Part shown: one piece after another, positions 111 through 57,901 of the stretch | Numbering within the stretch: the stretch's first letter is position 1 | How the letters are laid out: the number at the start of each line of letters is the position of its first letter | Origin: Parcubacteria group bacterium | GTDB taxonomy: Bacteria > Patescibacteriota > Minisyncoccia > Phycocordibacterales > UBA2135 | Length of the DNA stretch: 64,000 nt | NCBI GenBank assembly: GCA_016204005.1 | Contig: JACQLS010000030.1 | Coordinates: forward strand, 25,952-89,951 | Reading direction: 5' to 3' | Translations under genes and position numbers: made by a program | Notes under the pieces: model-generated | What the model saw: the letters and a program-made list of their open reading frames with translations, nothing else | Database searches by the model: none | What the model was told of the DNA's origin: nothing

Positions 111-1391
111 ATGACGCCAGAGATCCTCATGGATGCGCGATCAGAGGCTCGCTCGCTCAAACTTGCTGACTTCGATCTCTATCCGAAACGTGGCTTTCTT
201 GGAGAAGCAGATCCGCTAGAATTTTTTCAGGAAGATATCCGCGGGGCACATTGGCCATGGGTGCGAGAAGTCCAAGATGTTGCCAACGTTCTCCCCAAAT
301 TGTTAATAACGGACAAGGCGCGCAGATATATCACTGACCATATGGGAAGCATGTGGTCACCGCGGGATGGTGAGAGGATTATTGCGCTTTCGAGTTCAGC
401 GCAACATTGTCTCATGCGTACGGTCTCGTTTGTTGGGAACGCTTTTGTGCACGGTAGCATCACTGATATGTGGAGCGGAAAGGCAGAAGCACACATTCCA
501 GAATGGCTCGCCGTGCCATGGTGCCTCCTCGCAGATCAGTTGGGAACAACGCCAACGCTCTCGTACGCATGGTACGCGCTTCATAACTGGCGGCTTGCTG
601 ATCCAACGCAACCGATCTCTCTCGAAAACGTAATGCTCATCAACAATTTTTTTGGCGGGCTTGATGAAGAGGGATTTGTGAAAATCCATGTCGTCGTTGA
701 GGCGGCGTGGGCGCATCTTCCCGATGCTACACAGAGAGCACTCAAGGCTGTCTCCGATGATAATCCGAGAGAACTCGAAGACGCGCTTCTTGTTGTGCGG
801 GACGGGCAAAAAGCCGCCGTCGAAACTATGGGCAAGATGTGGCGGTGGTGTTCACCCAAGGTGTATTACGACCGCGTTCGTCTGCATATTGCCGGGTGGC
901 ACAATAACCCCGCGCTTCCCAATGGTGTCATGTATGAGGGTGTAGAAAAATTTGGAGGGAAGCCACAGCAGTTTGGTGGGGAGACTGGAGCGCAAAGCTC
1001 GGGCATCCCCCTTCAGTACGCTCTGCTTGATGTTCGCCATGAAGATGACATATTTCTCAAATATTTGCTTGGCATGCGCGCGCACATGCCAAGGGGGCAT
1101 CGGGCATTCATTGAAAAGGTAGAAGCATTGAGTCGGAATGGTCTTTCTATCCGTGAGTATGTCGATGCTCACCGGATCTCGAATCACTCGCTTCTTAGGG
1201 TTTATAGACAATGCCTCGCTGCACTTCTCGAGTTTCTCAACGTTCACTATCGATTTGTCGAGGAGTACATTGCGAAGCAAGAACAGACGCTTCCTTTCAA
1301 TACAACTAAGTATGGTACCGGTGGCACTCACGCCCTACCCTACTTGAAGAAGCATATCGATCGCATCGAAGCACTGGTAGAGGAAGTATAA
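111..1391 (+). CDS. Indoleamine 2,3-dioxygenase (IDO) family protein
   Basis: 426-aa ORF. It has the IDO hallmark block GWHNNPALPNGVMYEG...GGETGAQSS...LLDV, which parallels SGWKGNPQLSDGLVYEG...GGSAGQSS in IDO1. The C-terminal RxxH...YHxxxV helices are also conserved. Confidence 0.7.
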   Translation: MTPEILMDARSEARSLKLADFDLYPKRGFLGEADPLEFFQEDIRGAHWPWVREVQDVANVLPKLLITDKARRYITDHMGSMWSPRDGERIIALSSSAQHCLMRTVSFVGNAFVHGSITDMWSGKAEAHIPEWLAVPWCLLADQLGTTPTLSYAWYALHNWRLADPTQPISLENVMLINNFFGGLDEEGFVKIHVVVEAAWAHLPDATQRALKAVSDDNPRELEDALLVVRDGQKAAVETMGKMWRWCSPKVYYDRVRLHIAGWHNNPALPNGVMYEGVEKFGGKPQQFGGETGAQSSGIPLQYALLDVRHEDDIFLKYLLGMRAHMPRGHRAFIEKVEALSRNGLSIREYVDAHRISNHSLLRVYRQCLAALLEFLNVHYRFVEEYIAKQEQTLPFNTTKYGTGGTHALPYLKKHIDRIEALVEEV

Positions 1392-3022: not shown

Positions 3023-3049
3023 AAAACCCCGAGTTAATCGGGGTTTTTC
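3023..3049. terminator. Bidirectional terminator hairpin (aaaaccccga gttaa tcggggtttt) between convergent genes
   Basis: Inverted repeat with flanking A/T runs, read from the sequence. Confidence 0.65.
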
Positions 3050-4029
3050 TATGCTTCGTAATATCCAGCTGCTACTTTGATCTTTTGCGCGCCCTCTGTT
3101 CTCGGCGCTCCGACAATAAGGTGCGCGTGAAGGTGCATTACGGTGGCGCATGTGTGGCTTGTATCGCCGAAACGAAAGACAAGTGTGGCGCCCGGTATTC
3201 CAAATGTCGCCGTAATCCAATTCACGTGCTCCATAAGTTCGACAAACGCTTGCGGTCTCATTTCGGCAAGCGTCGTTATATGTTCCTTATGGATAAAGAG
3301 AAAATGCAGTTTTGTTCCCCAGTAGGGATAGTCGTTTTTGGTGACAAACCAGTGTTCACCTTCGCGAATAATCGGTTCACGATGGTATTTCCGTAGGTTG
3401 TCTTCTCCGCAGAAAGGACATACGCCATCCTTTTTTACTTGCGCATAGACATCCTCTTGTCCCTGGCGCAATTGTGTCATGTCTACGAATGTCTCGGACG
3501 CCGTGTCTGCTGTCTTTGTCGGCGACTTCCGCTCGTAGAGAATCAATGTCGCCTTATGCTCGTTTTTCTCATATCGGTTCGAAAATTCAGCACGATACGC
3601 AACACTCCATTCGGATAATTCGAGCTCCGGGAAGAACGCATCTCCCTCGGGTTTCGCATGGACTAGGGTGTAGTATACGCGCGTTACGTACGGCAGGAGG
3701 AGCTTGTATATCTCTCCACCGCCGATAACAAACACCTCTTTCGCCACATCCTTGATAAGGACAAAGAGTTCATCAAGTGAGTGCACGACCGTACATCCAG
3801 GAGCAGTAAATGTCTTTTCCCGCGCGAGTACAATATTTGTTCTCTTGGGAAGTGGTTTTCCCAACTTCGCAACAATTGATTCGTATGTCTTTCGCCCCAT
3901 GACAACAGTGTGGCCCATCGTGAGCTTCCGGAAGTGCGCGAGATCATCTGGAATGTCCCACGGGATTTTTCCTTTATTACCGATACAGCGATTTTCTGCT
4001 GCAGCAACGACGATCGAGAATCTCTTCAT
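3049..4029 (-). CDS. folA: Dihydrofolate reductase fused to a C-terminal HIT-superfamily (histidine triad, GalT/Ap4A-hydrolase-like) domain
   Basis: N-terminus MKRFSIVVAAAENRCIGNKGKIPWDIPDDLAHF is a canonical DHFR start. The C-terminus carries CPFCGED...HLHAHLIVG (CxxC plus HxHxHxx histidine triad). Confidence 0.75.
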   Translation of the reverse strand: MKRFSIVVAAAENRCIGNKGKIPWDIPDDLAHFRKLTMGHTVVMGRKTYESIVAKLGKPLPKRTNIVLAREKTFTAPGCTVVHSLDELFVLIKDVAKEVFVIGGGEIYKLLLPYVTRVYYTLVHAKPEGDAFFPELELSEWSVAYRAEFSNRYEKNEHKATLILYERKSPTKTADTASETFVDMTQLRQGQEDVYAQVKKDGVCPFCGEDNLRKYHREPIIREGEHWFVTKNDYPYWGTKLHFLFIHKEHITTLAEMRPQAFVELMEHVNWITATFGIPGATLVFRFGDTSHTCATVMHLHAHLIVGAPRTEGAQKIKVAAGYYEA

Positions 4030-5022: not shown

Positions 5023-5057
5023 GTGCCATGTTTTCGTCTGTCGCGGGAGTTGATGGT

Positions 5058-6740
5058 ATGATGGTACTATCTGACGTATTCATGATTCAGAATAAACTCA
5101 AAAACTTGATCAAGGGGGTGATAACAGAACTCGGCATAGAGGCCGAGGATATTCACCTCGAGCATCCGGCAGAGCTTGCGCACGGAGATTACTCAACCAA
5201 TGTCGCAATGGCAGCGGCGAAGATGGCAAAGGTAAACCCAAAAGCATTGGCAGAAAAAATTGCCGCAAAATTGAATGAGAAAAAAGATGAGGATATCGCA
5301 AAAATAGAAGTTGCGGGCCCCGGGTTCATCAACCTCCATCTTTCTTCGTCCTTTTTCGGAAAAAGCATGGGAGAAGCTGTCTCAGAAGGAGACAGTTGGG
5401 GGAGAAACAAGGCATATGAGGGGAAGAAGGTCATGGTGGAATACACTGACCCGAATCCGTTTAAGGAGTTTCATATCGGGCACCTCATGTCGAACGCAAT
5501 CGGCGAGTCCATCGCGCAGCTTATTGAGTTCGGTGGCGCGAAGGTGAAGCGGGCAAACTGGCAGGGTGATGTTGGTCCCCATGTTGCGAAAGCTCTTTGG
5601 GGTAAAATGCAAAAGCCAGGATTGGGTTGGGGAGAGGCGTATGCGTATGGCGCAGGCGAGTACGATGCGCACAAAGAAGAGATAGATACGATAAACCAAA
5701 AGGTGTACGCCAAAAGCGATAGCGCGATAAATGCTTTGTATGATGAAGGCCGCGCAGAATCACTTAAGCGTTTTGAGGAACTATACAAAACACTCGGCAC
5801 GACATTTGACCACTACTTTTTTGAAGGGAAGGAGGGGCTCTTGGGCAAACCAATAGTCGAGGAGTTTTTGAAAAAAGGTGTCTTTGAAGAAAGTGATGGT
5901 GCCGTTGTTTTCAAGGGAGAGAAGTACAATCTTCACACGCGTGTCTTCCTCACGTCGCGTGGTTTGCCCACCTACGAGGCAAAAGAGCTTGGCCTCAACA
6001 AGACAAAGTTTGAAGTGGAACCCGATTTAGACGCTTCAATCATAGTGACTGCAAACGAGCAAACTGATTACTTTAGGGTTGTGCTCAAAGTCATGGAGCT
6101 TATTTTCCCGGAGATTGCCTCCAAGACGACGCATATTGCCCACGGCGTGATGAAATTCGCCTCCGGAAAAATGTCCTCGCGTAAAGGGAATGTTGTTACC
6201 GGCGAATCGCTTCTCTTGGGACTAGAAAAACTCGCGGAACAGAAAATTAATGAAGGCGGGCGTACGGGAGATACCGCTGAGAATCTTGCAGAGGTAGTAG
6301 CCGTGGGCGCCATTAAATACTCGATTCTCAAACAAAATACAGGACGCGACATTGTGTTTGATCCAGAACAGTCGCTTTCTTTTGAAGGAGATTCTGGCCC
6401 CTATCTTCAATACACACATGCGCGGGCGCGCTCCATTTTACGCAAGGCAGAGGAACGCGGCATAGAGCCGCGCGCAGAGGAGAGAGCGGTTGGCGATGTA
6501 GAAAGAATGCTTTATCGCTTCCCTGAAGTTGTAGCGCGTGCATCCAAGGAATACGAGCCACACTATGTAACGACGTACCTTACAGAACTTGCTGGTGCGT
6601 TTAATACATTCTACGCGAAGGAGCGTATTTTAGATGCGGGAGAAGACGCGCCATACCGCGTGTTGCTCACCGAGGCAGTGGCGGTCACGCTTAAAAATGG
6701 CCTCCACCTTTTGGGCATCAAAGCCCCAGAGGTCATGTAA
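5058..6740 (+). CDS. argS: Arginine--tRNA ligase
   Basis: Class I HIGH motif (FHIGHLMSN) and KMSKS-like motif (KMSSRKGNVV); length about 560 aa. Start chosen at the ATG with a GGGAG SD-like element 10 nt upstream; the ORF track allows 5028. Confidence 0.85.
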   Translation: MMVLSDVFMIQNKLKNLIKGVITELGIEAEDIHLEHPAELAHGDYSTNVAMAAAKMAKVNPKALAEKIAAKLNEKKDEDIAKIEVAGPGFINLHLSSSFFGKSMGEAVSEGDSWGRNKAYEGKKVMVEYTDPNPFKEFHIGHLMSNAIGESIAQLIEFGGAKVKRANWQGDVGPHVAKALWGKMQKPGLGWGEAYAYGAGEYDAHKEEIDTINQKVYAKSDSAINALYDEGRAESLKRFEELYKTLGTTFDHYFFEGKEGLLGKPIVEEFLKKGVFEESDGAVVFKGEKYNLHTRVFLTSRGLPTYEAKELGLNKTKFEVEPDLDASIIVTANEQTDYFRVVLKVMELIFPEIASKTTHIAHGVMKFASGKMSSRKGNVVTGESLLLGLEKLAEQKINEGGRTGDTAENLAEVVAVGAIKYSILKQNTGRDIVFDPEQSLSFEGDSGPYLQYTHARARSILRKAEERGIEPRAEERAVGDVERMLYRFPEVVARASKEYEPHYVTTYLTELAGAFNTFYAKERILDAGEDAPYRVLLTEAVAVTLKNGLHLLGIKAPEVM

Positions 6741-6830
6741 AGGATCGGACATATCTTGAAAAAATATTGCAACGGTAGGCCTAAAACAAGGCCTTTTTGT
6801 GTAATGTCTAAAAATTGGTACTATTTGACT

Positions 6831-9800
6831 ATGTCTGACGAGCAAAATTCTCAAAAAAAGAGCGTAGCCGATCTTGAAAGGGAAATACTTCGCTTTTGGC
6901 GGGATAATAAGATTTTTGAGAAATCTCTTGCCAAGAAATCCCCCAAGGGTGAGTATACTTTTTACGATGGCCCTCCGTTCGCGAATGGGCTTCCCCACTA
7001 TGGGCACATTCTCGCCGGTGTCCTGAAAGATGCAATACCGCGTTTTCAGACGATGCGTGGATACCACGTTGCCCGTCGCTGGGGATGGGACTGCCACGGC
7101 CTTCCTGTTGAATACGAGATTGAAAAAGAGCTCGGATTAAAAACAAAGCGCGAGATTGAGGAGTATGGTATCCAGAACTTCAACAAGAAAGCGCGCGAAG
7201 CAATCATGCGTTATGCGGATGACTGGCGGCAGATCATCCCTAAAACAGGACGCTGGGTGGATATGGATCGCGACTACCGTACGATGGATTCTTCCTATAC
7301 CGAATCCGTATGGTGGATATTTAAGTCACTGTACGACAAGGGTCTCGTATATGAGGGGTTCAAGCCGATGCATTTGTGTCCCCGCTGTGAGACAACACTC
7401 TCAAACTTCGAGGTGAGTCAGGGGTACAAAGACATCACCGACATTACCGTCACAGTGCGATTACCGCTCAGTAAGGAGAAAAACACTTCTCTTCTGGTGT
7501 GGACGACTACTCCTTGGACACTCCCCGGAAACATGGCGGCTGCTGTAAACCCAAGCGTCGTCTATGCTAAATATCGTCTCTCTGATCCAGTTGAAGAGTT
7601 TGTCATTATTGCCAAAGATCGAGGGGAGGAAATCCTCAAGGATAAAAAGTATGAGATTGTTGAAGAGTTTATGGGGAATACGCTTGTTGGTCGTGCCTAT
7701 GAGCCGCCATTTTCGTACTACAAAGACGCGCCGCTTAAACACAAGGGAAATGCTTGGAAGGTATATGGAGCGGATTTTGTAACGACGACTGACGGCACAG
7801 GCATTGTGCATATAGCGCCAGCGTTCGGAGAAGACGACCTCAACCTCGCAAAAGAAAACGACATACCGGTTGTGCACCACGTTGGTACCGATGGCAAGTT
7901 TAAGAAAGAAGTTGCAGATTTTGTAGGTGAAAGCGTGAAGCCCGCCAATGATTTGCAAGCCACCGATGTACTCATCCTTAAAAACCTATCTTCTCGAGGA
8001 CTCCTTTTTGCAAAAGAGAAGATACAACACCCATACCCACATTGTTGGCGGTGCGATACTCCACTTTTGAACTACGCGGCAAGCTCATGGTTTGTGCAAG
8101 TCACTGCGATCAAAGACGCATTGGTGAGCGCAAATAAAAAAATATCGTGGGTTCCATCCGACATACGCGATGGGAGATTTGGTAAATGGCTTCTGGGCGC
8201 GCGCGATTGGGCAGTCTCGCGCTCACGTTTTTGGGGAGCGCCAATTCCCGCATGGCGGTGCCAAAAATGTGAACGTGTAGAGATTATCGGATCACTCTCC
8301 GAACTTCAGGAAAGAAGCGCTGATTCAGGCAACACATTCTTTTTAATGCGGCACGGCGAGGCGCGTAGTAATAAGGAGGGGTTTGTGAGTGCCTCAGTGA
8401 GTGCGCGCAACAACCTTACAGAAAAAGGGAAAAGGGAGGTTGATAAAGCCGCGAAATTTTTGCGGCGGCAATCGATCGATCTCATCATCGCTTCTCCGCT
8501 CGAGCGCACAAAAGAAACAGCGTTTCGGACGGCGAAAAACCTCGGATTAAAGAAAGACAAAGTCATTTTCTCGGACCTCATCCGCGAAACGGGCGTTGGC
8601 GTTTTTGAAGGTAAGCCGATTTCAGAATGGCAATCCCAGTTCTCTTCTTTGGAAGACAAATTCAAAATACGTCCCCAGGGAGGTGAGCATATCAATGATA
8701 TAAAGAGCCGAATTATCCCGTTCCTATATGAAACGGATCGCAAGTACACGAAAAAGAATATTCTCATTGTTTCGCATGCTGATCCGCTTTGGGCTCTTTA
8801 CATGGGGGCGCTTGGATATACGGAAAAGCAGGCAATTGAGGTTCATGGTAGGAAAAAGGATTTTATAAAAACAGCAGAAGTAAAAAAACTTGATTTTGCT
8901 CCGTTACCACACGATGAAGCATACACGCTCGATCTCCATCGCCCCTACATCGACGAGTTGAAGTTTAAATGTCTTTGCGGCGGTAAGATGAAGCGTGTTC
9001 CCGAAGTCTTCGACTGTTGGTTCGAGTCTGGAGCCATGCCCTATGGGCAAATGCACTATCCGTTTGAAAATAAGGACATCTTTGACCCAGAAAAGCAACG
9101 AGGATTCCCCGCGCACTTCATTGCGGAAGGGCTCGATCAGACGAGGGGGTGGTTCTATTCCCTCCTGGTCCTTGGGGTTGCGCTCTTTGGAGAGCCAACC
9201 TATAAGAACGTCATCACGAACGGCCTTGTACTCGCAGAAGACGGGCGGAAGATGTCAAAACGGTTAAAAAATTACCCAGAACCGACTGATGTAATAGAGA
9301 AGTACGGCGCAGACGCTTTGCGATTTTACCTCCTTTCCTCACCTGTTGTCCGAGCGGAAGACCTTCGTTTTAGCGAGGAAGGCGTTCGGGAAATACAAAA
9401 CAAGGTAATGAGCCGGCTTCGCAACGTCGTGTCTTTCTATCACATGTATGCTGGAGATACGTCGGATGGCGGAAGTGTTCCGAAATCAAATAACGTGCTC
9501 GACACGTGGGTGAGGGTCCGTCTCACCGAGGTGGTCAATAAAGTCACCGAGGCAATGGAGCAGTACGAGCTCGACAAGGCCGTTCGTCCACTCGCCGAGT
9601 TCATTGACGATCTCTCGACGTGGTATCTTCGCAGATCGCGTGACCGCTTTAAGTCAAAAGACGAGAGTGATAGGAAGAACGCGGTAGCGACAACGCGCTA
9701 CGTTTTAGTGGAGACAGCAAAGCTCATCGCTCCCTTCGCACCTTTTGTTGCGGAAGAAGTGTATCGCTCATTGTCTCCGAATGTGGAAAGTGTACATCTT

Positions 9801-10391
9801 GAAACATGGCCCAAATATGAACCAAGGTTTCCGATTTGGCCAAACCCGATGGCGCTTTTTCACCGCATTTTCCGGTCACACGGCGATATAAAGATTCTTG
9901 AAGACATGGCAGAGGTACGACACATCGTGTCCGTTGCTCTCGAAGCGCGTGCAAGCGCGGGCATTAAGGTGCGTCAACCCCTCGGGAAACTCTCTGTTAA
10001 AAGCAAAAAAACAAAAATCGTCGGCAATGAAGATCTTCTCACGTTAATTAAGGATGAGGTAAACGTAAAAGAGGTCGTGTTCGATTCGTCTATCAGAGAT
10101 GATGTCGAGCTCGACACGGAAATAACCGAAGAGCTAAAAGAAGAGGGGGCACTCCGCGATCTTATTCGTGTTGTTCAGGATTTGCGCAAGAAAGAAGGTT
10201 TGAATCCCGGTGACAACGCTGTTCTCTTGGTTACTGCGGGCGTTTCGGAACAGCAGTTTATAAAGAAATTCGAAGATGAGCTCAAAGATTCGACAACAGT
10301 TGAGATGGTTGAATTTGGCACCGAGATGCGCGGTGAAGAAGTGAAGGTAGATAACTTTACGTTTAACTTGAAGCTAAAAGCTAAAAGCTAA
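6831..10391 (+). CDS. ileS: Isoleucine--tRNA ligase carrying an inserted histidine-phosphatase (PGAM-like, RHGE) domain between the catalytic core and the anticodon-binding region
   Basis: PPFANGLPHYGH (HIGH), KMSKRLKNYPEP (KMSKS) and the N-terminus MSDEQ...LEREILRFW are typical of IleS. Residues ~500-720 contain LMRHGEARSN...SPLERTKETA...IVSHADPLWAL, which are histidine-phosphatase signatures. The ORF track start is 6756 (TTG); 6831 matches homolog N-termini. Confidence 0.85.
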   Translation: MSDEQNSQKKSVADLEREILRFWRDNKIFEKSLAKKSPKGEYTFYDGPPFANGLPHYGHILAGVLKDAIPRFQTMRGYHVARRWGWDCHGLPVEYEIEKELGLKTKREIEEYGIQNFNKKAREAIMRYADDWRQIIPKTGRWVDMDRDYRTMDSSYTESVWWIFKSLYDKGLVYEGFKPMHLCPRCETTLSNFEVSQGYKDITDITVTVRLPLSKEKNTSLLVWTTTPWTLPGNMAAAVNPSVVYAKYRLSDPVEEFVIIAKDRGEEILKDKKYEIVEEFMGNTLVGRAYEPPFSYYKDAPLKHKGNAWKVYGADFVTTTDGTGIVHIAPAFGEDDLNLAKENDIPVVHHVGTDGKFKKEVADFVGESVKPANDLQATDVLILKNLSSRGLLFAKEKIQHPYPHCWRCDTPLLNYAASSWFVQVTAIKDALVSANKKISWVPSDIRDGRFGKWLLGARDWAVSRSRFWGAPIPAWRCQKCERVEIIGSLSELQERSADSGNTFFLMRHGEARSNKEGFVSASVSARNNLTEKGKREVDKAAKFLRRQSIDLIIASPLERTKETAFRTAKNLGLKKDKVIFSDLIRETGVGVFEGKPISEWQSQFSSLEDKFKIRPQGGEHINDIKSRIIPFLYETDRKYTKKNILIVSHADPLWALYMGALGYTEKQAIEVHGRKKDFIKTAEVKKLDFAPLPHDEAYTLDLHRPYIDELKFKCLCGGKMKRVPEVFDCWFESGAMPYGQMHYPFENKDIFDPEKQRGFPAHFIAEGLDQTRGWFYSLLVLGVALFGEPTYKNVITNGLVLAEDGRKMSKRLKNYPEPTDVIEKYGADALRFYLLSSPVVRAEDLRFSEEGVREIQNKVMSRLRNVVSFYHMYAGDTSDGGSVPKSNNVLDTWVRVRLTEVVNKVTEAMEQYELDKAVRPLAEFIDDLSTWYLRRSRDRFKSKDESDRKNAVATTRYVLVETAKLIAPFAPFVAEEVYRSLSPNVESVHLETWPKYEPRFPIWPNPMALFHRIFRSHGDIKILEDMAEVRHIVSVALEARASAGIKVRQPLGKLSVKSKKTKIVGNEDLLTLIKDEVNVKEVVFDSSIRDDVELDTEITEELKEEGALRDLIRVVQDLRKKEGLNPGDNAVLLVTAGVSEQQFIKKFEDELKDSTTVEMVEFGTEMRGEEVKVDNFTFNLKLKAKS

Positions 10392-10398: not shown

Positions 10399-10986
10399 GT
10401 GTATACCATCTTTCACACCGATGCGATCGTGCTTGGGGGTAACGATCGTGGGGACGCGAGCCGCGCGCTTTCCCTTTTTACACGTGAGCACGGTCTCTTG
10501 TATGCCCACGCCCAAGGACTTCGTGAATTAAAATCAAAACTTCGATATGCCTTGCAGGATTTTTCCTATGCTCATGTTAATCTCGTGCATGGTAAAAGTG
10601 GGTGGAAAGTGACCAGCGCGCTTCATAAGAGTTCTTTTCTCCCACACGGCGAGATGAGGGCGCGCTTGGGTGCTATTGTACGGGTGTCGAAACTCTTGCG
10701 TCGCCTTCTCCCGGAAGAAGAAAAGAACGAAGCACTGTATGACGAAATTCTTCAAACGTTTTCAATGATTAAAAGCACCCCATTTAGTCCCCAATATATT
10801 TTCAATGTTGAGGTTATTCTTGTCATGCGCATCTTGGCGCTTTTGGGCTATTGGGGAGACGATGTTCGTTTTGCTCCATTCCTCGAGGAAGATATTGCGA
10901 AAGAAGAGCTGCTTCAACAAATGATGAGCATTAAACCTTTTGCTATTCGTGAGATTAATAAAGCGCTTAAAGAAACCCAACTGTAA
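10399..10986 (+). CDS. recO: DNA repair protein RecO (short form)
   Basis: N-terminal OB-fold pattern (TDAIVLGGNDRGDASRALSLFTREHGLLYAHAQG) typical of RecO; 195 aa. Confidence 0.55.
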   Translation: MYTIFHTDAIVLGGNDRGDASRALSLFTREHGLLYAHAQGLRELKSKLRYALQDFSYAHVNLVHGKSGWKVTSALHKSSFLPHGEMRARLGAIVRVSKLLRRLLPEEEKNEALYDEILQTFSMIKSTPFSPQYIFNVEVILVMRILALLGYWGDDVRFAPFLEEDIAKEELLQQMMSIKPFAIREINKALKETQL

Positions 10987-30311: not shown

Positions 30312-33044
30312 ATGGCAGTTGAAAGAGCCCCCATCCCGCAGCCGTTTACCACACCAGATGCAGAACTCGCGTACTTGCGGGAACGTCTTCGTCTAAAAGA
30401 GCGCGAGCTTGAGACCCGTGGTGAGAGAGATGCTTTAGCGAGAGCTGCAACGGAAACAGTGCAGGAACACGCCGCCCGATCTCCCGAAGAAGTACTTCCA
30501 AAAGAACAAGTGCTCCCCAAGGAGGAAGCTGAAGCTATAGCACTCAATCTTTCACCAGAGAAGCATGATGATCGCATGGGCGAGTTCCTCGGACTCCTTC
30601 AAGAGCGGGGTATTAAAAATGCCCTTTCGGTTATTGAGTCACTCAAGAGTCCTCATCTTGCAGACGATTTTCATCGTTTTTTGATTGCATATGTGAAAGG
30701 AGGGCATTCTGTCTATGGGTTGAAAGAGCGCGGAGAGTTATGGAAGTCACTGCGAATGACGCTCTACGAAGTTTTCTTGCCAGAAGCTGTGAAAGAAGAA
30801 CTTAAGGGGAAGACACTCAAAGAACTCCTCTCTTCTATGGAGCAGTTCTTCGCGGGAATGGCATCTATTTCCGACGTTTCCCCTGATACTACACGCCACT
30901 GGAGCGCTGAGTTGGCGCTCGCAGAGTCTGGGTCGGAAGTTGTTTTTTATGTTGCTGTTCCTGACACAAAGAAAGATCTTTTTGAAAAACAACTTCTTTC
31001 TGTCTTTCCTAAGGCAGAACTTTACGAACAAAAAGATGACTTCAACATCTTTAACGAGGGGGGGATTGCCGTTGGTGCTGTTGGGACATTTAAGCGGGAG
31101 GCGATTCTTCCCCTCAAGACATACGACACCTTTGACTACGATCCTTTGAATATCGTTCTCAACACGTTTTCAAAACTGGCAAAAGACGGAGAAGGCGCGG
31201 CGATACAATTTGTTTTTGAAGCAACGCCCAACTCACTCGTTGGAGACTATCGGAAGACATTGGAAAAAGTAGAGAAGGGAGCGTCACTCAAAGATGCCTA
31301 CGGCGGATCCTTCACCAAGGAGTTCATCAAGGCTTTTGGCGGCATCATGGGCGACAGTCCAAGTAAGGAGAAAGAGAAGCACGTTGATACCGCGGTTGTT
31401 GAGGCGATCCGCGCGAAAATCGCCGCGCCAATCATAAAAGCAAACATTCGCTTAATAGCTGGAGCTGCCGATTCCGCACGGGCGAAAGAAATTTTGAGTG
31501 ATATGGTGTCCGCATTTCGACAATTTGAAAATACGACAGGAAACACCCTTGTTTTTAAAGAAATGGAAGGCGGCAAAAAAGATGTCCTCTTGAAGTCATT
31601 TTCATACCGCTTATTTAACGAGAGCGAATCATTACCCTTGAACCTCCGTGAGGCGACGACTTTGATGCATCTCCCGTCGGCGGGTATTGAATCATCCCCG
31701 CACTTGAAGCAGGCGAAGAGCGGTGGAGCTCCAGCCCCCGTCGCGCTTCCCACAAGCGGCACCCTCTTGGGAGTGAACCACTATAGGAACACCGAAACAA
31801 AAGTATACCTTACGAAAGAAGACCGACTACGACACTTCTACGTCATCGGTCAGACGGGTACAGGAAAGACGACATTATTGAAAAATATGATCGTGCAGGA
31901 CATCCAAGATGGCGACGGTGTCTGCATGATTGACCCCCACGGCACGGACATTCAAGATGTCCTGGGGCTTATTCCCGATCATCGGAAGGAAGACGTCATC
32001 TATTTCGACCCGAGCAATTTGAATCGCGTCATGGGGCTTAACATGCTCGAGTATGACCCACGTTTTCCAGAGCAGAAGACCTTTGTTGTCAACGAGCTTT
32101 TTAGCATTTTCCAAAAGCTCTATGGGGCGGTACCGGAGTCTATGGGGCCCATGTTCGAACAGTACTTCAGAAATGCGACACTCCTTGTTCTTGAGGACCC
32201 TGAATCGGGGAATACACTCCTAGATGTGTCACGCGTGCTCTCGGACGCTACCTTCCGAAAAGCAAAACTTTCGAAATCCAAAAATCCCGTGATCAATCAG
32301 TTCTGGGAGGAAATCGCGGAGAAAACAGGCGGAGAAGCGGCGCTTTCAAACATCGTTCCCTACATCACGAGCAAATTCGACATCTTCACCGCGAACGACT
32401 TTATGCGACCAATCATTGCCCAGTCGAAATCGTCCTTCAACTTCCGCGAGATCATGGACTCTCGAAAGATTCTTCTTGTCAATCTTGCGAAGGGCCGGCT
32501 TGGAGCAATCAACTCGAACCTCCTCGGTCTCATTATTGTCGGAAAGATCCTCATGTCGGCCCTTTCGCGTGTCGACATCGTCGGGAAGGGTGAGGTGGCG
32601 CCGTTTTATCTCTACATCGATGAGTTCCAAAACGTCACGACAGATTCCATCTCAACTATTCTCTCTGAAGCTCGCAAGTATAAGCTTTCGCTCACCGTTG
32701 CCCACCAGTTCATTGCTCAACTCGAGGAAGGTATTCGCAACGCAGTCTTTGGAAACGTTGGTTCAATGGCCGCTTTCCGTGTAGGACCGGAAGATGCCGA
32801 ATTTCTAAAGCAGCAATTTACTCCGATTTTTGGAGCCAACGACCTCATGAATATCGACAATTTCAACGCGTACGTGCGCTTACTCGCGAACGGCCGTCCA
32901 GCGAAGCCGTTTAATATTCGCATTCCTCCGAAGCCGGAAGGCAACCCTGCCCAAGCTGAAGTACTAAAAGAGCTCTCCTCGCTCAAATATGGGCGACCGC
33001 GGGAAGACGTTGAGACCGAGATCGCCACTCGCTACAGCCTTTGA
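30312..33044 (+). CDS. Large soluble P-loop ATPase with a C-terminal VirD4/TrwB/TraD-like (type IV coupling protein-like) NTP-binding domain and a ~470-aa N-terminal domain of unknown function; no TM segments
   Basis: RHFYVIGQTGTGKTT (Walker A), IDPHG, LYIDEFQN (Walker B) and VAHQFIAQL (T4CP Q-motif, compare TrwB GLQSTSQL); 910 aa. Confidence 0.6.
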   Translation: MAVERAPIPQPFTTPDAELAYLRERLRLKERELETRGERDALARAATETVQEHAARSPEEVLPKEQVLPKEEAEAIALNLSPEKHDDRMGEFLGLLQERGIKNALSVIESLKSPHLADDFHRFLIAYVKGGHSVYGLKERGELWKSLRMTLYEVFLPEAVKEELKGKTLKELLSSMEQFFAGMASISDVSPDTTRHWSAELALAESGSEVVFYVAVPDTKKDLFEKQLLSVFPKAELYEQKDDFNIFNEGGIAVGAVGTFKREAILPLKTYDTFDYDPLNIVLNTFSKLAKDGEGAAIQFVFEATPNSLVGDYRKTLEKVEKGASLKDAYGGSFTKEFIKAFGGIMGDSPSKEKEKHVDTAVVEAIRAKIAAPIIKANIRLIAGAADSARAKEILSDMVSAFRQFENTTGNTLVFKEMEGGKKDVLLKSFSYRLFNESESLPLNLREATTLMHLPSAGIESSPHLKQAKSGGAPAPVALPTSGTLLGVNHYRNTETKVYLTKEDRLRHFYVIGQTGTGKTTLLKNMIVQDIQDGDGVCMIDPHGTDIQDVLGLIPDHRKEDVIYFDPSNLNRVMGLNMLEYDPRFPEQKTFVVNELFSIFQKLYGAVPESMGPMFEQYFRNATLLVLEDPESGNTLLDVSRVLSDATFRKAKLSKSKNPVINQFWEEIAEKTGGEAALSNIVPYITSKFDIFTANDFMRPIIAQSKSSFNFREIMDSRKILLVNLAKGRLGAINSNLLGLIIVGKILMSALSRVDIVGKGEVAPFYLYIDEFQNVTTDSISTILSEARKYKLSLTVAHQFIAQLEEGIRNAVFGNVGSMAAFRVGPEDAEFLKQQFTPIFGANDLMNIDNFNAYVRLLANGRPAKPFNIRIPPKPEGNPAQAEVLKELSSLKYGRPREDVETEIATRYSL

Positions 33045-33086
33045 TTTGTTTTATACTGTAGGCATTAGTTACACAACGTTTCCATT

Positions 33087-35435
33087 ATGGCAAACTTCGA
33101 AAGACCAATGAGTACTGGAGGAGCTGAAGGTGCCCCCGAAGCACCACGTCAGGCAACTCGGGCAGAAAAAGCGAAGCTTACGCGGCAGATAAACATACTT
33201 GAGCGTCAATTGGAGAAACTCGCACACGAGGACAGGGAGCAGCCCGGAGCACAAGCGGAGCGCGAGAGAATCGGTGCCGAGCGAAACAGGCTTTGGGATT
33301 TGCGGAATCAGATGGATACGGAAGTTGCCTCCTCTGAAGCGGTATTTCCAAACGTACCCATGGGCGAAGGAACTTTTGATGAAGCCGAGAGTGCGCCCCA
33401 AGAAATGCGCGTTGCTGGGGAGACGTACGAAGATACACCCCCTCCTACTCCCGAAACGCTTCGCCCTGACACGCAAGAAAAAGCAGAAGAGCCCAAGGCG
33501 CACTTCTCTTACAAATGGACTGGCCGTAGGACGGGAGAGCCGGGAGAGGCCGAAGAAATAGCAAGAGAGGAAGCGGAGCGCGAGGAAAAGTTAAGGGCTT
33601 TAGGCAAAAAGACCCCCCAAAAAAACAAGGGGGATATTCCCGTGAGGCAGGAACCTTCAGAACCGGTTGTGTGGGATAGTTCAAAGACAACAGGGAGAAG
33701 GACAAAGGGAGAAGAAGCAATTGATAGCAGAGTAACGGCATTCAAAAAAAAGATTCGTGGTATTGCAGATGGTACGATCCCCGTACCTCTTGCGGGAGAA
33801 ACTCCCGCAAGAGAAACACTCACTGCGGAAGAGGAGCCAACTCCTCTCTATGATGCCGCTGTCAGGGAGGGGTATATCAAAGAGGAACTGAAACCGCGCA
33901 GGAGACGCCAAGCGCTCGTTACACCCAAAGCAGATGCGGAGTTTCCAGGAGAAGTGAGCGAAGCAGAAAGACGGCACCTAGAAGAGCTTGGCCGCATGAC
34001 GCCATGGACGGGTGAAGAGTCTCCCGAAGTCGGAAGAGAAATGACCCCAGAGGAGCAAGGAAGGCGATTAGAGGAATGGTTGGGCGAAATGCAGAACTCC
34101 ATTAGGGCTGAAGCAGAAAGGAAAAGCCTCTGGCAGTATATGAGAGGAGCTTCAGAACGTTATGCGAAACTTCCTTTCTATCAAAAAATTGCTGTTGGAC
34201 TCGCTCTTACAGCAGGTGTTGGAAGTGGAGCACTTCTTGGTGGTCCCGCAGGGCTCGCAATCACGGCGGGTGCAATGGGTGCAAAACTTGGTGTTGGTTT
34301 TCTCACATTCCTTGGCACATACGAAGCTGTCGAGTCGTTGGCGGAACGGTCAAGGGAGAGACAAGTAAAGTTTTGGAACAAATACCCTAGAGTTCTTGGC
34401 GCTGTTGCCGGAGCAATCACGGGGGGCATTTCAGCGTACAGTATCGGGCAGGCTCTTGAATGGGTGGCGGACAATTTCGCATCCAGCGCTACCGAAGGTG
34501 CAGCGCGCGTTGCTGTCGAGGCAGCCGACCGGGGAGGCCAAGTAGTGGCAGAAGTCAGACCGGGCCTCGTAGAACCAAAGGTAGTAACTCCGGAGATGCC
34601 TCCTGCGTCAGATTATGCAGAGGGGTCGGGTGTATATGCCGTTGGAGGAGAAGTGGGTTCCCAAGAAAGTGTTGTCCAGATTGGCGCCGAAGCCGCGCGC
34701 ACTATTACAGCAGAAGTTGCGAAGGGTGACACTGTGTGGGGGCTCTTGAAGAACGGATTAGGAGAGAAGCTCGCAGGGCTTTCCCCAGAACAGCAAACCT
34801 ACGTCATTGATGGGCTCAAAGACAAACTTGCGGCGATGACTCCGGCAGAATTGAAGGACCTCGGTATTAAGAGCGGCAACATTGATCGCATCTTCCCTGG
34901 GCAAAAGCTTGATTTCACGTCTCTCCTTGGGGATTCTTCTCTTGTTGAGAAACTTAAAGCTGGAGCAGAAAACCTTACCGCAGAACAGCTACAGAATATC
35001 CGAGAGGGAGGAGTTGCACTACCCCCCACTCCATTAGCTGAGGCGATGGAGGCGCCTACCGTTGAACAAGCAGCCGAGGTTTTGGAAAAGGGGGCTGAAG
35101 TAGTCGTGAATGAAGAGGCTGGATCCGTGGAACACATGGGCACAGAGGTTTTCTTTGATAAGTCGGCAGCGAACATCTATGAGCAAGGCAACGGCGAGCT
35201 CATAGCTTGGGGCGGCACGGATGATGCAAAAGCGGCGCTTGCGGAACGTATTGCGGGGGAAACGGGGAAGCAAGTGCGTGTGGACGCTTCCATGGGTTCT
35301 TACTATGTAACCCCGGAGGGTTCGCGTGTTTCAATAGAAGAAACATTTAAAAGTTTTGGTGATTGGTGGAGTCGCCTTTGGGGGAACATGCCGGAGCCTG
35401 AAGGAGTGGCCACCATGCTTACGCGTAATAAATAG
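33087..35435 (+). CDS. Large acidic protein (782 aa) with E/R-rich N-terminal region, central glycine-zipper hydrophobic segments and a C-proximal LysM-like peptidoglycan-binding motif
   Basis: GDTVWGLLKNGL...IDRIFPGQKLDF (LysM signature); GLALTAGVGSGALLGGPAGLAITAGAMGAKLGVGFL glycine zipper. Confidence 0.5.
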   Translation: MANFERPMSTGGAEGAPEAPRQATRAEKAKLTRQINILERQLEKLAHEDREQPGAQAERERIGAERNRLWDLRNQMDTEVASSEAVFPNVPMGEGTFDEAESAPQEMRVAGETYEDTPPPTPETLRPDTQEKAEEPKAHFSYKWTGRRTGEPGEAEEIAREEAEREEKLRALGKKTPQKNKGDIPVRQEPSEPVVWDSSKTTGRRTKGEEAIDSRVTAFKKKIRGIADGTIPVPLAGETPARETLTAEEEPTPLYDAAVREGYIKEELKPRRRRQALVTPKADAEFPGEVSEAERRHLEELGRMTPWTGEESPEVGREMTPEEQGRRLEEWLGEMQNSIRAEAERKSLWQYMRGASERYAKLPFYQKIAVGLALTAGVGSGALLGGPAGLAITAGAMGAKLGVGFLTFLGTYEAVESLAERSRERQVKFWNKYPRVLGAVAGAITGGISAYSIGQALEWVADNFASSATEGAARVAVEAADRGGQVVAEVRPGLVEPKVVTPEMPPASDYAEGSGVYAVGGEVGSQESVVQIGAEAARTITAEVAKGDTVWGLLKNGLGEKLAGLSPEQQTYVIDGLKDKLAAMTPAELKDLGIKSGNIDRIFPGQKLDFTSLLGDSSLVEKLKAGAENLTAEQLQNIREGGVALPPTPLAEAMEAPTVEQAAEVLEKGAEVVVNEEAGSVEHMGTEVFFDKSAANIYEQGNGELIAWGGTDDAKAALAERIAGETGKQVRVDASMGSYYVTPEGSRVSIEETFKSFGDWWSRLWGNMPEPEGVATMLTRNK

Positions 35436-46440: not shown

Positions 46441-46825
46441 GGGGATGATCGGCTTCGACAAGGGGCGTACTTTGAAACGCGCAGGTAGAGCTGGGATAAC
46501 TCTTAAAAAGGCCCCAAACCATAAGTGCAAACAAATTGCGCTCAATCGTTTCGCCTTACTTTAAGGCGAGCGACTTCGTGTTCGTATACGCTTAAGCGGC
46601 GAACGTGAACGCTCCCACTTTTAATTTCTGGTAGAGAGACGGGAGTGTCATACCACCAGGATAGGCATGCAGATTGCTTCGACTGCTCCGCTGAAACCAA
46701 GAAGCTCGATGCAGTTCGGTTTTGTATGTTTCAGACGCTCTGCATTTAAATCAAAAAACACACTACACCTGTAGATCCGTTTCAATTTTCTCTTTGCATG
46801 CGGGTTCAATTCCCGCCATCTCCAT
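46441..46825 (+). ncRNA. ssrA: tmRNA (transfer-messenger RNA), standard one-piece
   Basis: 5' end GGGGAUGAUCGGCUUCGACAAGGGG matches the tmRNA 5' consensus. 3' end GCGGGTTCAATTCCCGC-CATCTCC-A gives the T-arm plus acceptor 3' strand. The acceptor pairs GGGGAUG/CAUCUCC with a G3:U wobble (alanine identity). It sits immediately downstream of smpB. Confidence 0.85.
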
Positions 46826-57828: not shown

Positions 57829-57901
57829 GTGCCCGTAGCTCAATGGTTAGAGCACAGAGCTTATACCTCTGCGGTTCCTGGTTCGAGTCCAGGCGGGCAC
57901 A
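57829..57901 (+). tRNA. tRNA with anticodon UAU (reads AUA; tRNA-Ile2-like)
   Basis: Cloverleaf traced by hand. Acceptor GTGCCCG/CGGGCAC with discriminator A; D-arm GCTC-AATGGTTA-GAGC. Anticodon arm CAGAG-CTTATAC-CTCTG with U33 and A37. T-arm CCTGG-TTCGAGT-CCAGG. No encoded CCA. Confidence 0.75.

Follow-up and report, generated by a model that had tools for sequence, protein, structure and literature searches.

Known synthetases and phosphatases related to the inserted domain

Extra domains in aminoacyl-tRNA synthetases are already known as a phenomenon. In IleRS, ValRS and LeuRS the hydrolytic CP1 domain is inserted in the class Ia core and acts in cis on the CCA end of the tRNA, which the class Ia enzymes pass between two sites (review PMC7373986). 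That arrangement is the conceptual model for the mechanism that we propose below for the element described here, a histidine phosphatase domain inserted in the isoleucyl-tRNA synthetase (IleRS, gene ileS) of a Parcubacteria group bacterium (assembly GCA_016204005.1), encoded in a stretch of 64,000 nucleotides of contig JACQLS010000030.1 (positions 25,952 to 89,951; "the window" hereafter means this whole stretch, numbered from its first letter, and features lie on its plus strand unless a minus strand is given). CP1 differs from the insert in that its fold is unrelated, its chemistry is ester hydrolysis of the mis-acylated amino acid, and it is universal in these enzymes.

We hold it as close to certain that the window encodes a housekeeping type-2 IleRS with all motifs and domains intact, bearing in its zinc-knuckle loop a complete branch-1 phosphatase that is catalytically competent as judged from its residues; that the synthetase has in this phosphatase a dedicated partner and not a passenger; that in relatives it is a separate gene abutting an insert-less ileS, the two forms having interconverted; and that ValRS has independently received insertions of the same phosphatase family, which also occurs as a fusion with TsaC.

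The described proteins that come closest resemble one half of this combination or the other. Type-2, eukaryote-like IleRS enzymes of known structure (Thermus thermophilus 1ILE and Priestia megaterium IleRS2, 8C8U) share the Rossmann catalytic fold, CP1, zinc knuckle, anticodon-binding domain and DUF5915-type C-terminus, with about 7 residues where the window IleRS has a 203-residue phosphatase. The metal-independent phosphoserine phosphatase PspA/iPSP1 of Hydrogenobacter thermophilus (4IJ5/4IJ6), the glucosyl-3-phosphoglycerate phosphatase GpgP (Rv2419c), the alpha-ribazole phosphatase CobC and the riboflavin-pathway phosphatase HFP (9MMH), the closest solved relatives of the insert by both sequence and fold, share its fold, catalytic residues and compact size (template modelling (TM) score about 0.76); unlike the insert, they are free-standing metabolic enzymes with no synthetase link, and they are only 26-29% identical to it.

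Three further comparisons concern the joining of enzymes. The curated family NF040702 (ileS_w_GNAT) is an IleS with an extra enzymatic domain, and in two relatives discussed below (P0083 and P0194; P and L numbers are our handles for proteins and loci) a GNAT domain accompanies the phosphatase; the window protein lacks a GNAT domain, and that of P0083 lies in the CP1 region and not in the zinc knuckle. The best NCBIfam model for the insert is PRK07238, a bifunctional RNase H / acid phosphatase of the mycobacterial Rv2228c/RnhC type, with 92.8 bits over its phosphatase half; this is well under the cutoff of 326, the partner there is RNase H, and the two enzymes are fused end to end rather than one inside the other. 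The physiological substrate of this fusion between a branch-1 histidine phosphatase and a nucleic-acid enzyme is unclear. Finally, a phosphatase is already built into an enzyme of the tRNA 3' end, the Escherichia coli CCA-adding enzyme, whose HD domain removes the tRNA 3'-end phosphate. In toxSAS systems pyrophosphorylation of the CCA end, which can be isoacceptor-specific, blocks charging (bioRxiv 10.1101/2021.04.30.441581; PMC11559606), and the small alarmone hydrolase antitoxins clear this pyrophosphate (bioRxiv 10.1101/2021.04.30.441581). These enzymes have HD/RSH hydrolase folds as opposed to that of the histidine phosphatases, and the likeness to the insert is one of hypothesised function only.

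In the searchable literature we found no paper that links a histidine phosphatase to IleRS, ValRS or TsaC, and no description of the phosphatase-IleRS architecture. This agrees with the original prediction, made from the letters of the window, that no IleS with a phosphatase module was known. The proteins themselves are public under generic names. As a result of the insert, the NCBI pipeline names them just "class I tRNA ligase family protein", so that IleRS can look missing or unusual in genome surveys of the candidate phyla radiation (CPR).

A phosphatase between the two halves of the zinc knuckle

The synthetase is encoded by an uninterrupted open reading frame (ORF) of 1211 residues at 6756..10391, starting with TTG. 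Residues 522-724 of this ORF (8319..8927) constitute an inserted His_Phos_1 (branch 1) domain, recognised by Pfam and by the predicted fold and delimited by alignment with 1ILE and with insert-less IleS proteins from the CPR. In the alignment with 1ILE (E=5.8e-225), residues 38-521 match chain residues 11-480 and residues 725-1024 match 488-792, the 203-residue insert taking the place of a linker of about 7 residues; the insert-less CPR proteins have a short linker at the identical point. The profile PF00300 matches residues 529-695 of the whole protein with 105.5 bits (E=3.7e-30), and the excised segment 8280-8940 by itself with 109.9 bits, both scores being far over the gathering cutoff of 21.7. 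The GC content of the insert resembles that of the rest of ileS.

The host site is a loop of the catalytic domain, flanked on either side by a cysteine pair of a Cys4 zinc knuckle. In the alignment of the window protein with its homologues (121 members), both cysteines of the first pair, C502-x2-C505 (8259..8270), occur in 116 members and align with VCQAC of T. thermophilus, while those of the second pair, C739-x-C741 (8970..8978), occur in 116 and 117 members respectively and align with ACACGG. From the phosphatase the chain returns to the DLHRPYID block of IleRS through a linker, F-x-P-L-P-H-[ND]-x-x-Y-E/T-L (8895..8930), of which F714, P716, P718, H719 and N720 are each found in at least 100 of the 121 members and which is missing from insert-less IleS proteins.

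The motifs that the original prediction had named, both for IleS (PIPAWRCQKC at 8241-8270 and DLHRPYID at 8931-8954) and for the phosphatase (LMRHGEARSN at 8343-8372, SPLERTKETA at 8493-8522 and IVSHADPLWAL at 8766-8798), were all located where it had put them. Its central claim, a genuine in-frame domain insertion between PIPAWRCQKC and DLHRPYID of an essential enzyme, is borne out by the solved IleRS structures and the insert-less relatives, which fix the boundaries, and by the same in-frame architecture in all the homologues and loci that we examined; the size it had estimated, about 220 residues, was close to the 203 found.

The synthetase remains complete around the insert. The protein scores 895 bits with the NCBIfam equivalog TIGR00392 (ileS; cutoff 621), which places it in that family, and Pfam recognises tRNA-synt_1 in two pieces split by His_Phos_1, followed by Anticodon_1 and DUF5915. 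Of the synthetic site, the HIGH-type signature PHYGH (6993..7007) has its P, H and G invariant in 52 family members, and the KMSKS-type loop KMSKR (9249..9263) has its K, M, S and K invariant or nearly so. The CP1 editing-domain motifs TTTPWTLPGN ... GTGIVHIAPAFGEDD (7503..7838) consist of residues that are invariant in the alignment, and 1WK8 and 1UE0, structures of the IleRS editing domain in isolation, are matched as well; TTTPWTLPGN and GTGIVH...D are both present and conserved. Since the CP1 signatures are intact, editing has not been replaced by the phosphatase, and since the HIGH, KMSKS and CP1 motifs are all present and conserved, the insert is an addition and not a replacement.

This ORF is the sole IleS within the 64-kb window, and the gene order thyA ... 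argS - ileS - recO in which it stands recurs in a distant relative (L001). It is the housekeeping enzyme, neither a paralogue nor an assembly chimera. Two specialised IleRS families were tried and rejected: the acquired mupirocin-resistance enzymes MupA and MupB are of the same IleRS type, yet they are different genes (scores of 742 and 770 bits, where the cutoff is 1900), and ileS_w_GNAT (NF040702) gives 316.7 bits against a cutoff of 1999, with no GNAT domain found by Pfam in the window protein.

Translation probably begins not at the TTG but at the ATG at 6831, giving ileS coordinates of 6831..10391 and a protein of 1186 residues, because a 100%-identical database protein (P0001) has 1186 residues and because a hairpin and T-run after argS fall within the TTG extension. 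The hairpin, GGCC-TAAAACAA-GGCC followed by TTTTT (6778-6801), stands downstream of the argS stop (6740) and ahead of the ATG, and looks like a terminator or attenuator-like element between two otherwise tightly linked genes.

Catalytic residues, fold and subfamily

The insert has the sequence and fold features by which a branch-1 histidine phosphatase is recognised, that is, the profile score, the RHG, Arg, His and acid residues and the predicted alpha/beta fold. Conservation was followed in two sets, the 121-member alignment already mentioned and a set of 81 sequences consisting of that of the window and those of the best 80 species loci of a genome scan (described below). In both sets, without exception, we find the RHG motif with R532 and the catalytic, phospho-accepting H533 (8349..8357), the second phosphate-binding arginine R584 in SPLERTKETA (8505..8507), the likely proton donor E611 (8586..8588) and the second catalytic histidine H674 in IVSHADPLWAL (8775..8777). 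N539, G643, E644 and R652 are likewise invariant in 121 of 121, with adjacent positions varying freely, and in the 80 species loci, and R532, H533, N539, R584, E611 and H674 are invariant in some 200 sequences. The RHG residues are thus not degenerate. Free-standing and other fused copies of the domain keep the catalytic residues too, with E or D at the position of E611.

Pairwise identity is 48% in the insert, 50% in the anticodon-binding and C-terminal part and 67% in the catalytic core. In its degree of conservation the insert is close to the anticodon-binding and C-terminal part, which indicates ordinary purifying selection. It has been found for other inserted synthetase domains that they are sometimes structural, and one might see in the insert a non-catalytic structural or regulatory module, such as a ligand sensor or docking domain, that keeps the fold alone. 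However, the catalytic residues are all invariant across those roughly 200 sequences, at 36-50% domain identity, while their surroundings vary, and this implies selection for catalysis; we regard a non-catalytic role as very improbable. The phosphatase appears, from these residues, to be complete and active.

Structure prediction gives the same picture. AlphaFold models the insert alone with confidence (predicted local distance difference test (pLDDT) 93, predicted TM score (pTM) 0.91) as a histidine phosphatase in the compact form of about 200 residues with a short helical cap, and the whole protein with pLDDT 87 and pTM 0.81, the pLDDT over the insert being 86-97. The top 50 Foldseek matches of the modelled insert are all histidine phosphatases or mutases (TM 0.7-0.78), the mutases ranking slightly lower. 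Among solved structures the best sequence match is PspA 4IJ5 (E=1.6e-16).

Despite this, the insert belongs to no characterised phosphatase subfamily as far as its sequence can be matched, for no NCBIfam equivalog among dPGM, PspA, CobC, SixA and GpmB is reached. The dPGM models NF038349 (76.8 bits against 225) and TIGR01258 (28.4 against 81.7) and the other gpmA/gpmB models are far under cutoff; a role as glycolytic mutase is further set aside by a ValRS-fusion genome (see below) that has two iPGM genes beside enolase and PGK. PspA (NF045917, 63.9 bits against 350, the solved PspA-type relatives being only 26-29% identical as noted above) and CobC (TIGR03162, 74.4 against 162.9) fail as well. 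In PHROGs the only match is a phage histidine-phosphatase family of unknown function.

The SixA model TIGR00249 also stays under its cutoff (41.8 bits against 74.5), with a match that spans only the first 80 or so residues, the N-terminal half. It bears on the idea that the domain is a protein phosphatase whose target is the synthetase or a factor bound to it; it might, for instance, reverse an inhibitory Ser/Thr/His phosphorylation such as HipA-family kinase toxins place on class I synthetases. The histidine-phosphatase superfamily does include protein phosphatases (SixA, PGAM5 and Sts-1), the weak SixA match and the phosphoserine hydrolysed by the closest solved relative point the same way, and tethering in cis would be sensible for a protein substrate. 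Yet protein phosphatases are missing from the top 50 fold matches, the neighbourhoods examined showed no kinase partner, and there is no evidence of phosphorylation of these synthetases, so that this explanation strikes us as quite unlikely; were it right, the insert would be a built-in regulator.

Distribution of the inserted form

The insertion is shared by related genomes, as the original prediction had asked to be checked. All of the 120 closest homologues of the window protein (52-84% identity; labelled Parcubacteria, Paceibacterota, Niyogi- and Wolfebacteria and others) list PF00300. An alignment of the insert only was then scanned against one genome per GTDB species, where it matched at least 599 stretches, at least 577 of them confirmed relatives, and architecture was read in the best 80 of these. 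In 80 of the 80 the phosphatase is in the same reading frame as the N- and C-terminal halves of IleS. All 80 loci belong to Parcubacteria-type Patescibacteria (Yonath-, Campbell-, Taylor-, Kaiser- and Nomurabacteria, Minisyncoccia), and the closed chromosomes CP011215, OY969557 and OY970290 are represented among them. Insert-bearing IleS is thus found in at least 80 related species, and probably in several hundred, and the insert is fixed in a Parcubacteria-type lineage of the CPR.

These counts also dispose of the suspicion that the window, which comes from a metagenome-assembled genome, contains an artefact, be it a chimeric contig or an annotation that joined a separate phosphatase gene to ileS by mistake. 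Independent assemblies, closed chromosomes included, show one and the same in-frame architecture, the IleS halves flank the insert in a single frame, and composition is uniform. The 120 homologues and 80 species loci refute this reading, to which we would assign practically no chance.

When the insert alone was searched against 1.8 billion representative proteins, 8652 matches were obtained, of which 774 have E-values below 1e-10. IleS proteins or fragments make up most of the best 150, with synthetase bodies about 40-60% identical to that of the window IleS, and the 150 also include some 25 complete free-standing proteins of about 190 residues as well as other fusions.

Free-standing copies beside insert-less ileS genes

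Five of the free-standing copies were looked up, and four of them (L003, L004, L005/L006 and L093) lie 1-10 bp upstream of an insert-less ileS of 931-972 residues in an argS ... recO neighbourhood. This is the neighbourhood of the fused gene as well. In the window argS (5028..6740; ORF, with synteny in L001, L003 and L093) lies upstream of ileS and recO (10399..10986; RecO_N and RecO_C) downstream, and among the 80 species loci argS is found upstream in 52 and recO downstream in 55. The phosphatase gene of unfused lineages sits between argS and ileS. In L093, for example, the order is smpB-infC-rplT-argS-(3 bp)-phosphatase-(1 bp)-ileS-...-recO.

When the IleS bodies were placed in a distance tree, the L093 enzyme, which is unfused, came out nested within the fused clade (100 of 100 bootstraps), with the unfused L003 and L005 outside it. 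The nested position of L093 implies that fused and adjacent-gene states have interconverted at least once, and that the partners remained physically linked when they did. The tree of the phosphatase domains is star-like and poorly resolved, and shows just that free-standing and inserted copies interleave.

Two proteins stand apart from this pattern. P0134 (L091, 8001-8870), with a 57-residue N-terminal extension and 223 bits against the insert profile, belongs to a NeuB / CMP-sugar / epimerase (sialic-acid/polysaccharide) cluster, and in the alignment it has V and Y at the positions of E611 and R652; the family may have branched here into a sugar-phosphate phosphatase. The neighbours of P0173 are uninformative. 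From these two contexts it follows that the phosphatase family is not exclusively tRNA-linked.

Fusions with other synthetases and tRNA enzymes

The same phosphatase family occurs in ValRS, in about 20 distinct clusters; one such protein (P0271) is a full ValRS of 948 bits. In most cases the domain lies between the cysteine pairs of the zinc knuckle (...IPVWYCxxC-[phosphatase]-CxxCG...DTLDTWFSSG), a loop homologous to the IleRS site. Two further ValRS insertion sites follow ...STLGWP and QWF, the latter with four tandem copies. P0151 (ValRS, 1161 residues) has four tandem, mutually diverged phosphatase domains, and P0160 (IleS, 1419 residues) has two, one in the zinc knuckle as usual and the other immediately ahead of the anticodon-binding domain. 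The full phosphatase copies of both proteins all keep the catalytic residues.

TsaC, the threonylcarbamoyl-AMP synthase of the tRNA modification t6A, carries the domain C-terminally in 3 clusters, and the neighbourhood of this fusion includes a CCA-adding enzyme, TGT, a queuosine-salvage gene and TruD. C-terminal fusion to ArgRS is rare, with two clusters that are 92% identical to each other. We have downgraded it as an independent recruitment, read-through in an argS-phosphatase-ileS operon being sufficient to account for it. In the ArgRS-phosphatase genome (L002, 10001-12795) recO directly follows the fused gene, and the usual ileS slot between them is empty, from which we infer that ileS was relocated elsewhere in that genome.

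Other unusual architectures were noticed among these proteins. P0083 (1325 residues), an IleS related to that of the window, has besides the phosphatase a GNAT acetyltransferase inside the CP1/editing region, and P0194 (1066 residues), another such relative, has an IS200-like Y1 transposase domain in CP1, a C-terminal GNAT domain and the phosphatase. GNAT toxins acetylate aminoacyl-tRNAs, which makes a GNAT domain inside an editing domain intriguing. TsaC (Sua5/YrdC) is fused to the tRNA pseudouridine synthase TruB in P0276, P0277, P0279 and P0281, from Buchananbacteria-like CPR, a further example of a tRNA-enzyme fusion.

The sole chemical step common to all partners (IleRS, ValRS, ArgRS and TsaC) is the conversion of ATP to an adenylate and pyrophosphate (PPi). 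The domain could accordingly be imagined to hydrolyse PPi, or the terminal phosphate of a nucleotide by-product, and thereby to drive the formation of adenylate in organisms whose metabolism is limited or conserves PPi. Phosphoanhydrides can be hydrolysed by some members of the superfamily in the wider sense (the branch-2 acid phosphatases), and no pyrophosphatase gene was seen among the scanned ORFs of the window, a weak argument as the window spans only 64 kb; the literature on the CPR that we searched for absence of a pyrophosphatase lists PPA merely as a scored gene. A diffusible product would gain little from tethering, however, the domain is found in just one or two of some 20 synthetases, we know of no branch-1 member that is a pyrophosphatase, and with the ArgRS fusion explained by read-through from a neighbour there is one independent partner fewer. 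We consider PPi removal unlikely.

What the phosphatase may act on

Adjacency to ileS, insertion into it, parallel insertion at the homologous loop of ValRS, and re-separation with adjacency kept together argue strongly that the phosphatase works with the synthetase. Conservation in three forms (operon, insertion and parallel insertions) is a signal that usually marks real functional coupling. Few enzymes have been studied as thoroughly as the aminoacyl-tRNA synthetases, and it is surprising that, throughout a large radiation of bacteria, the core of the essential IleRS, as well as that of ValRS, contains a second, unrelated and apparently active catalytic domain.

With low confidence, we suggest that the module acts in cis on a substrate held by the synthetase. 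Tethering would give a kinetic gain only for a macromolecular substrate that is bound to the synthetase, and with an isoelectric point (pI) of about 7 the phosphatase domain is not basic, so that any RNA binding would need the synthetase. A blocking terminal phosphate on the acceptor end of the synthetase-bound tRNA is our tentative choice of preferred substrate, a possibility ranked first because of the tethering, the non-basic domain, the use of the same loop in two synthetases, the precedent of CP1 and the natural occurrence of blocked tRNA ends. The synthetase would provide tRNA binding and specificity, and the flexible ACCA-3' end, which shuttles between the synthetic and CP1 editing sites, would also enter the phosphatase pocket. 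There H533 would accept the terminal 2'- or 3'-phosphate, or the outer phosphate of a 3'-pyrophosphate, E611 would protonate the leaving group, and water would then free the phosphate. A chargeable 3' end would be restored on tRNA-Ile or, where ValRS carries the domain, on tRNA-Val, making end healing a third catalytic station of the enzyme. More generally, class Ia synthetases across the Patescibacteria, IleRS in some lineages and ValRS in others, might have acquired a third station that dephosphorylates the end of their own bound tRNA (3'-phosphate, 2'-phosphate or a toxin-installed 3'-pyrophosphate), as built-in end repair or toxin immunity, a proposal that we think doubtful as it stands. 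A blocked tRNA end as substrate would mean a new step of translation quality control or repair, and tRNA-end dephosphorylation would be the first RNA-end activity of the histidine-phosphatase fold and the first repair function within an aminoacyl-tRNA synthetase.

Several observations weigh against a tRNA end as substrate. We know of no branch-1 histidine phosphatase that acts on RNA ends, and every one of the nearest solved relatives, whether ranked by sequence or by fold, is a small-molecule phosphatase. The geometry of the fusions is not uniform (three ValRS sites, including the four tandem copies, and C-terminal fusion in ArgRS and TsaC), and to our knowledge TsaC does not handle the tRNA 3' end. 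PADLOC defence models gave no match for the insert or for P0171 and only a marginal, unrelated one for P0180, that is, no link to a defence system for the proteins scanned. The chemistry of the family appears generic, given that the close homologue P0134 is in a sialic-acid/polysaccharide cluster, and the zinc-knuckle loop may simply be a permissive site of insertion.

Much of this would fit a small-molecule phosphomonoesterase, active for instance on phospho-amino acids, sugar phosphates or nucleotide-like phosphates, that has no relation to aminoacylation and became tied to IleRS, first in an operon and then by insertion in a permissive loop, for the sake of co-expression, stability or stoichiometry. 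TIGAR/FBPase-2 can be added to PspA, GpgP, CobC and the riboflavin-pathway phosphatase as relatives of this kind, the compact form of about 200 residues with its short helical cap is typical of such enzymes, the pI is neutral, the high-scoring P0134 serves as an example, and CPR genomes fuse genes readily (TsaC-TruB, or the DHFR-HIT fusion described below). A passenger would not be expected, though, to turn up time and again, and independently, in some 20 ValRS clusters at three sites, in TsaC, and next to or within IleS, nor to stay abutting ileS after fission. Moreover, the contexts examined among the best 150 matches, save those of P0134 and P0173, are all fused to or beside tRNA-related enzymes (most free-standing matches were not looked up), and the activity of a glycolytic mutase is excluded by the dPGM scores and the iPGM genes given above. 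To us a small-molecule enzyme of this kind is a doubtful explanation.

The original prediction had listed misactivated aminoacyl-adenylates besides tRNA 3' ends and a regulatory phosphoprotein. The histidine-phosphatase fold moves a terminal phosphoryl group to a histidine, and since an adenylate has no such group, action on adenylates is chemically unlikely. This leaves phosphorylated tRNA ends, PPi or nucleotides, phosphoproteins and ordinary metabolites as candidates. If PPi or a metabolite is the substrate, the fusion would tell something of the way in which ultra-small symbiotic cells arrange their essential chemistry.

Other features of the window

A tRNA-Ile gene with anticodon UAU was found by ARAGORN at 57829-57901 (+). 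Most bacteria read AUA by means of a lysidine-modified CAU tRNA, and a UAU tRNA-Ile is uncommon; its presence bears on tRNA recognition by the window IleRS.

At 3049-4029, on the minus strand, a 326-residue ORF encodes a dihydrofolate reductase (DHFR) fused to a HIT-family domain; in L001 the DHFR and HIT-like genes are separate. HIT/Hint enzymes hydrolyse acyl- and aminoacyl-adenylates. The product of 111-1391 (+) is an indoleamine 2,3-dioxygenase-like protein (PF01231, 202 bits), unusual for a reduced CPR genome. Directly after secY-adk-map, the region 30312-35435 (+) holds a 910-residue TraG/VirD4/HerA-like ATPase and a 782-residue ORF without Pfam match, and may be a mobile or secretion-related insertion. 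Finally, a tmRNA gene at 46441-46824 (+) encodes the tag peptide ANKLRSIVSPYFKASDFVFVYA, which is long and has an end that differs from the common ...LAA.

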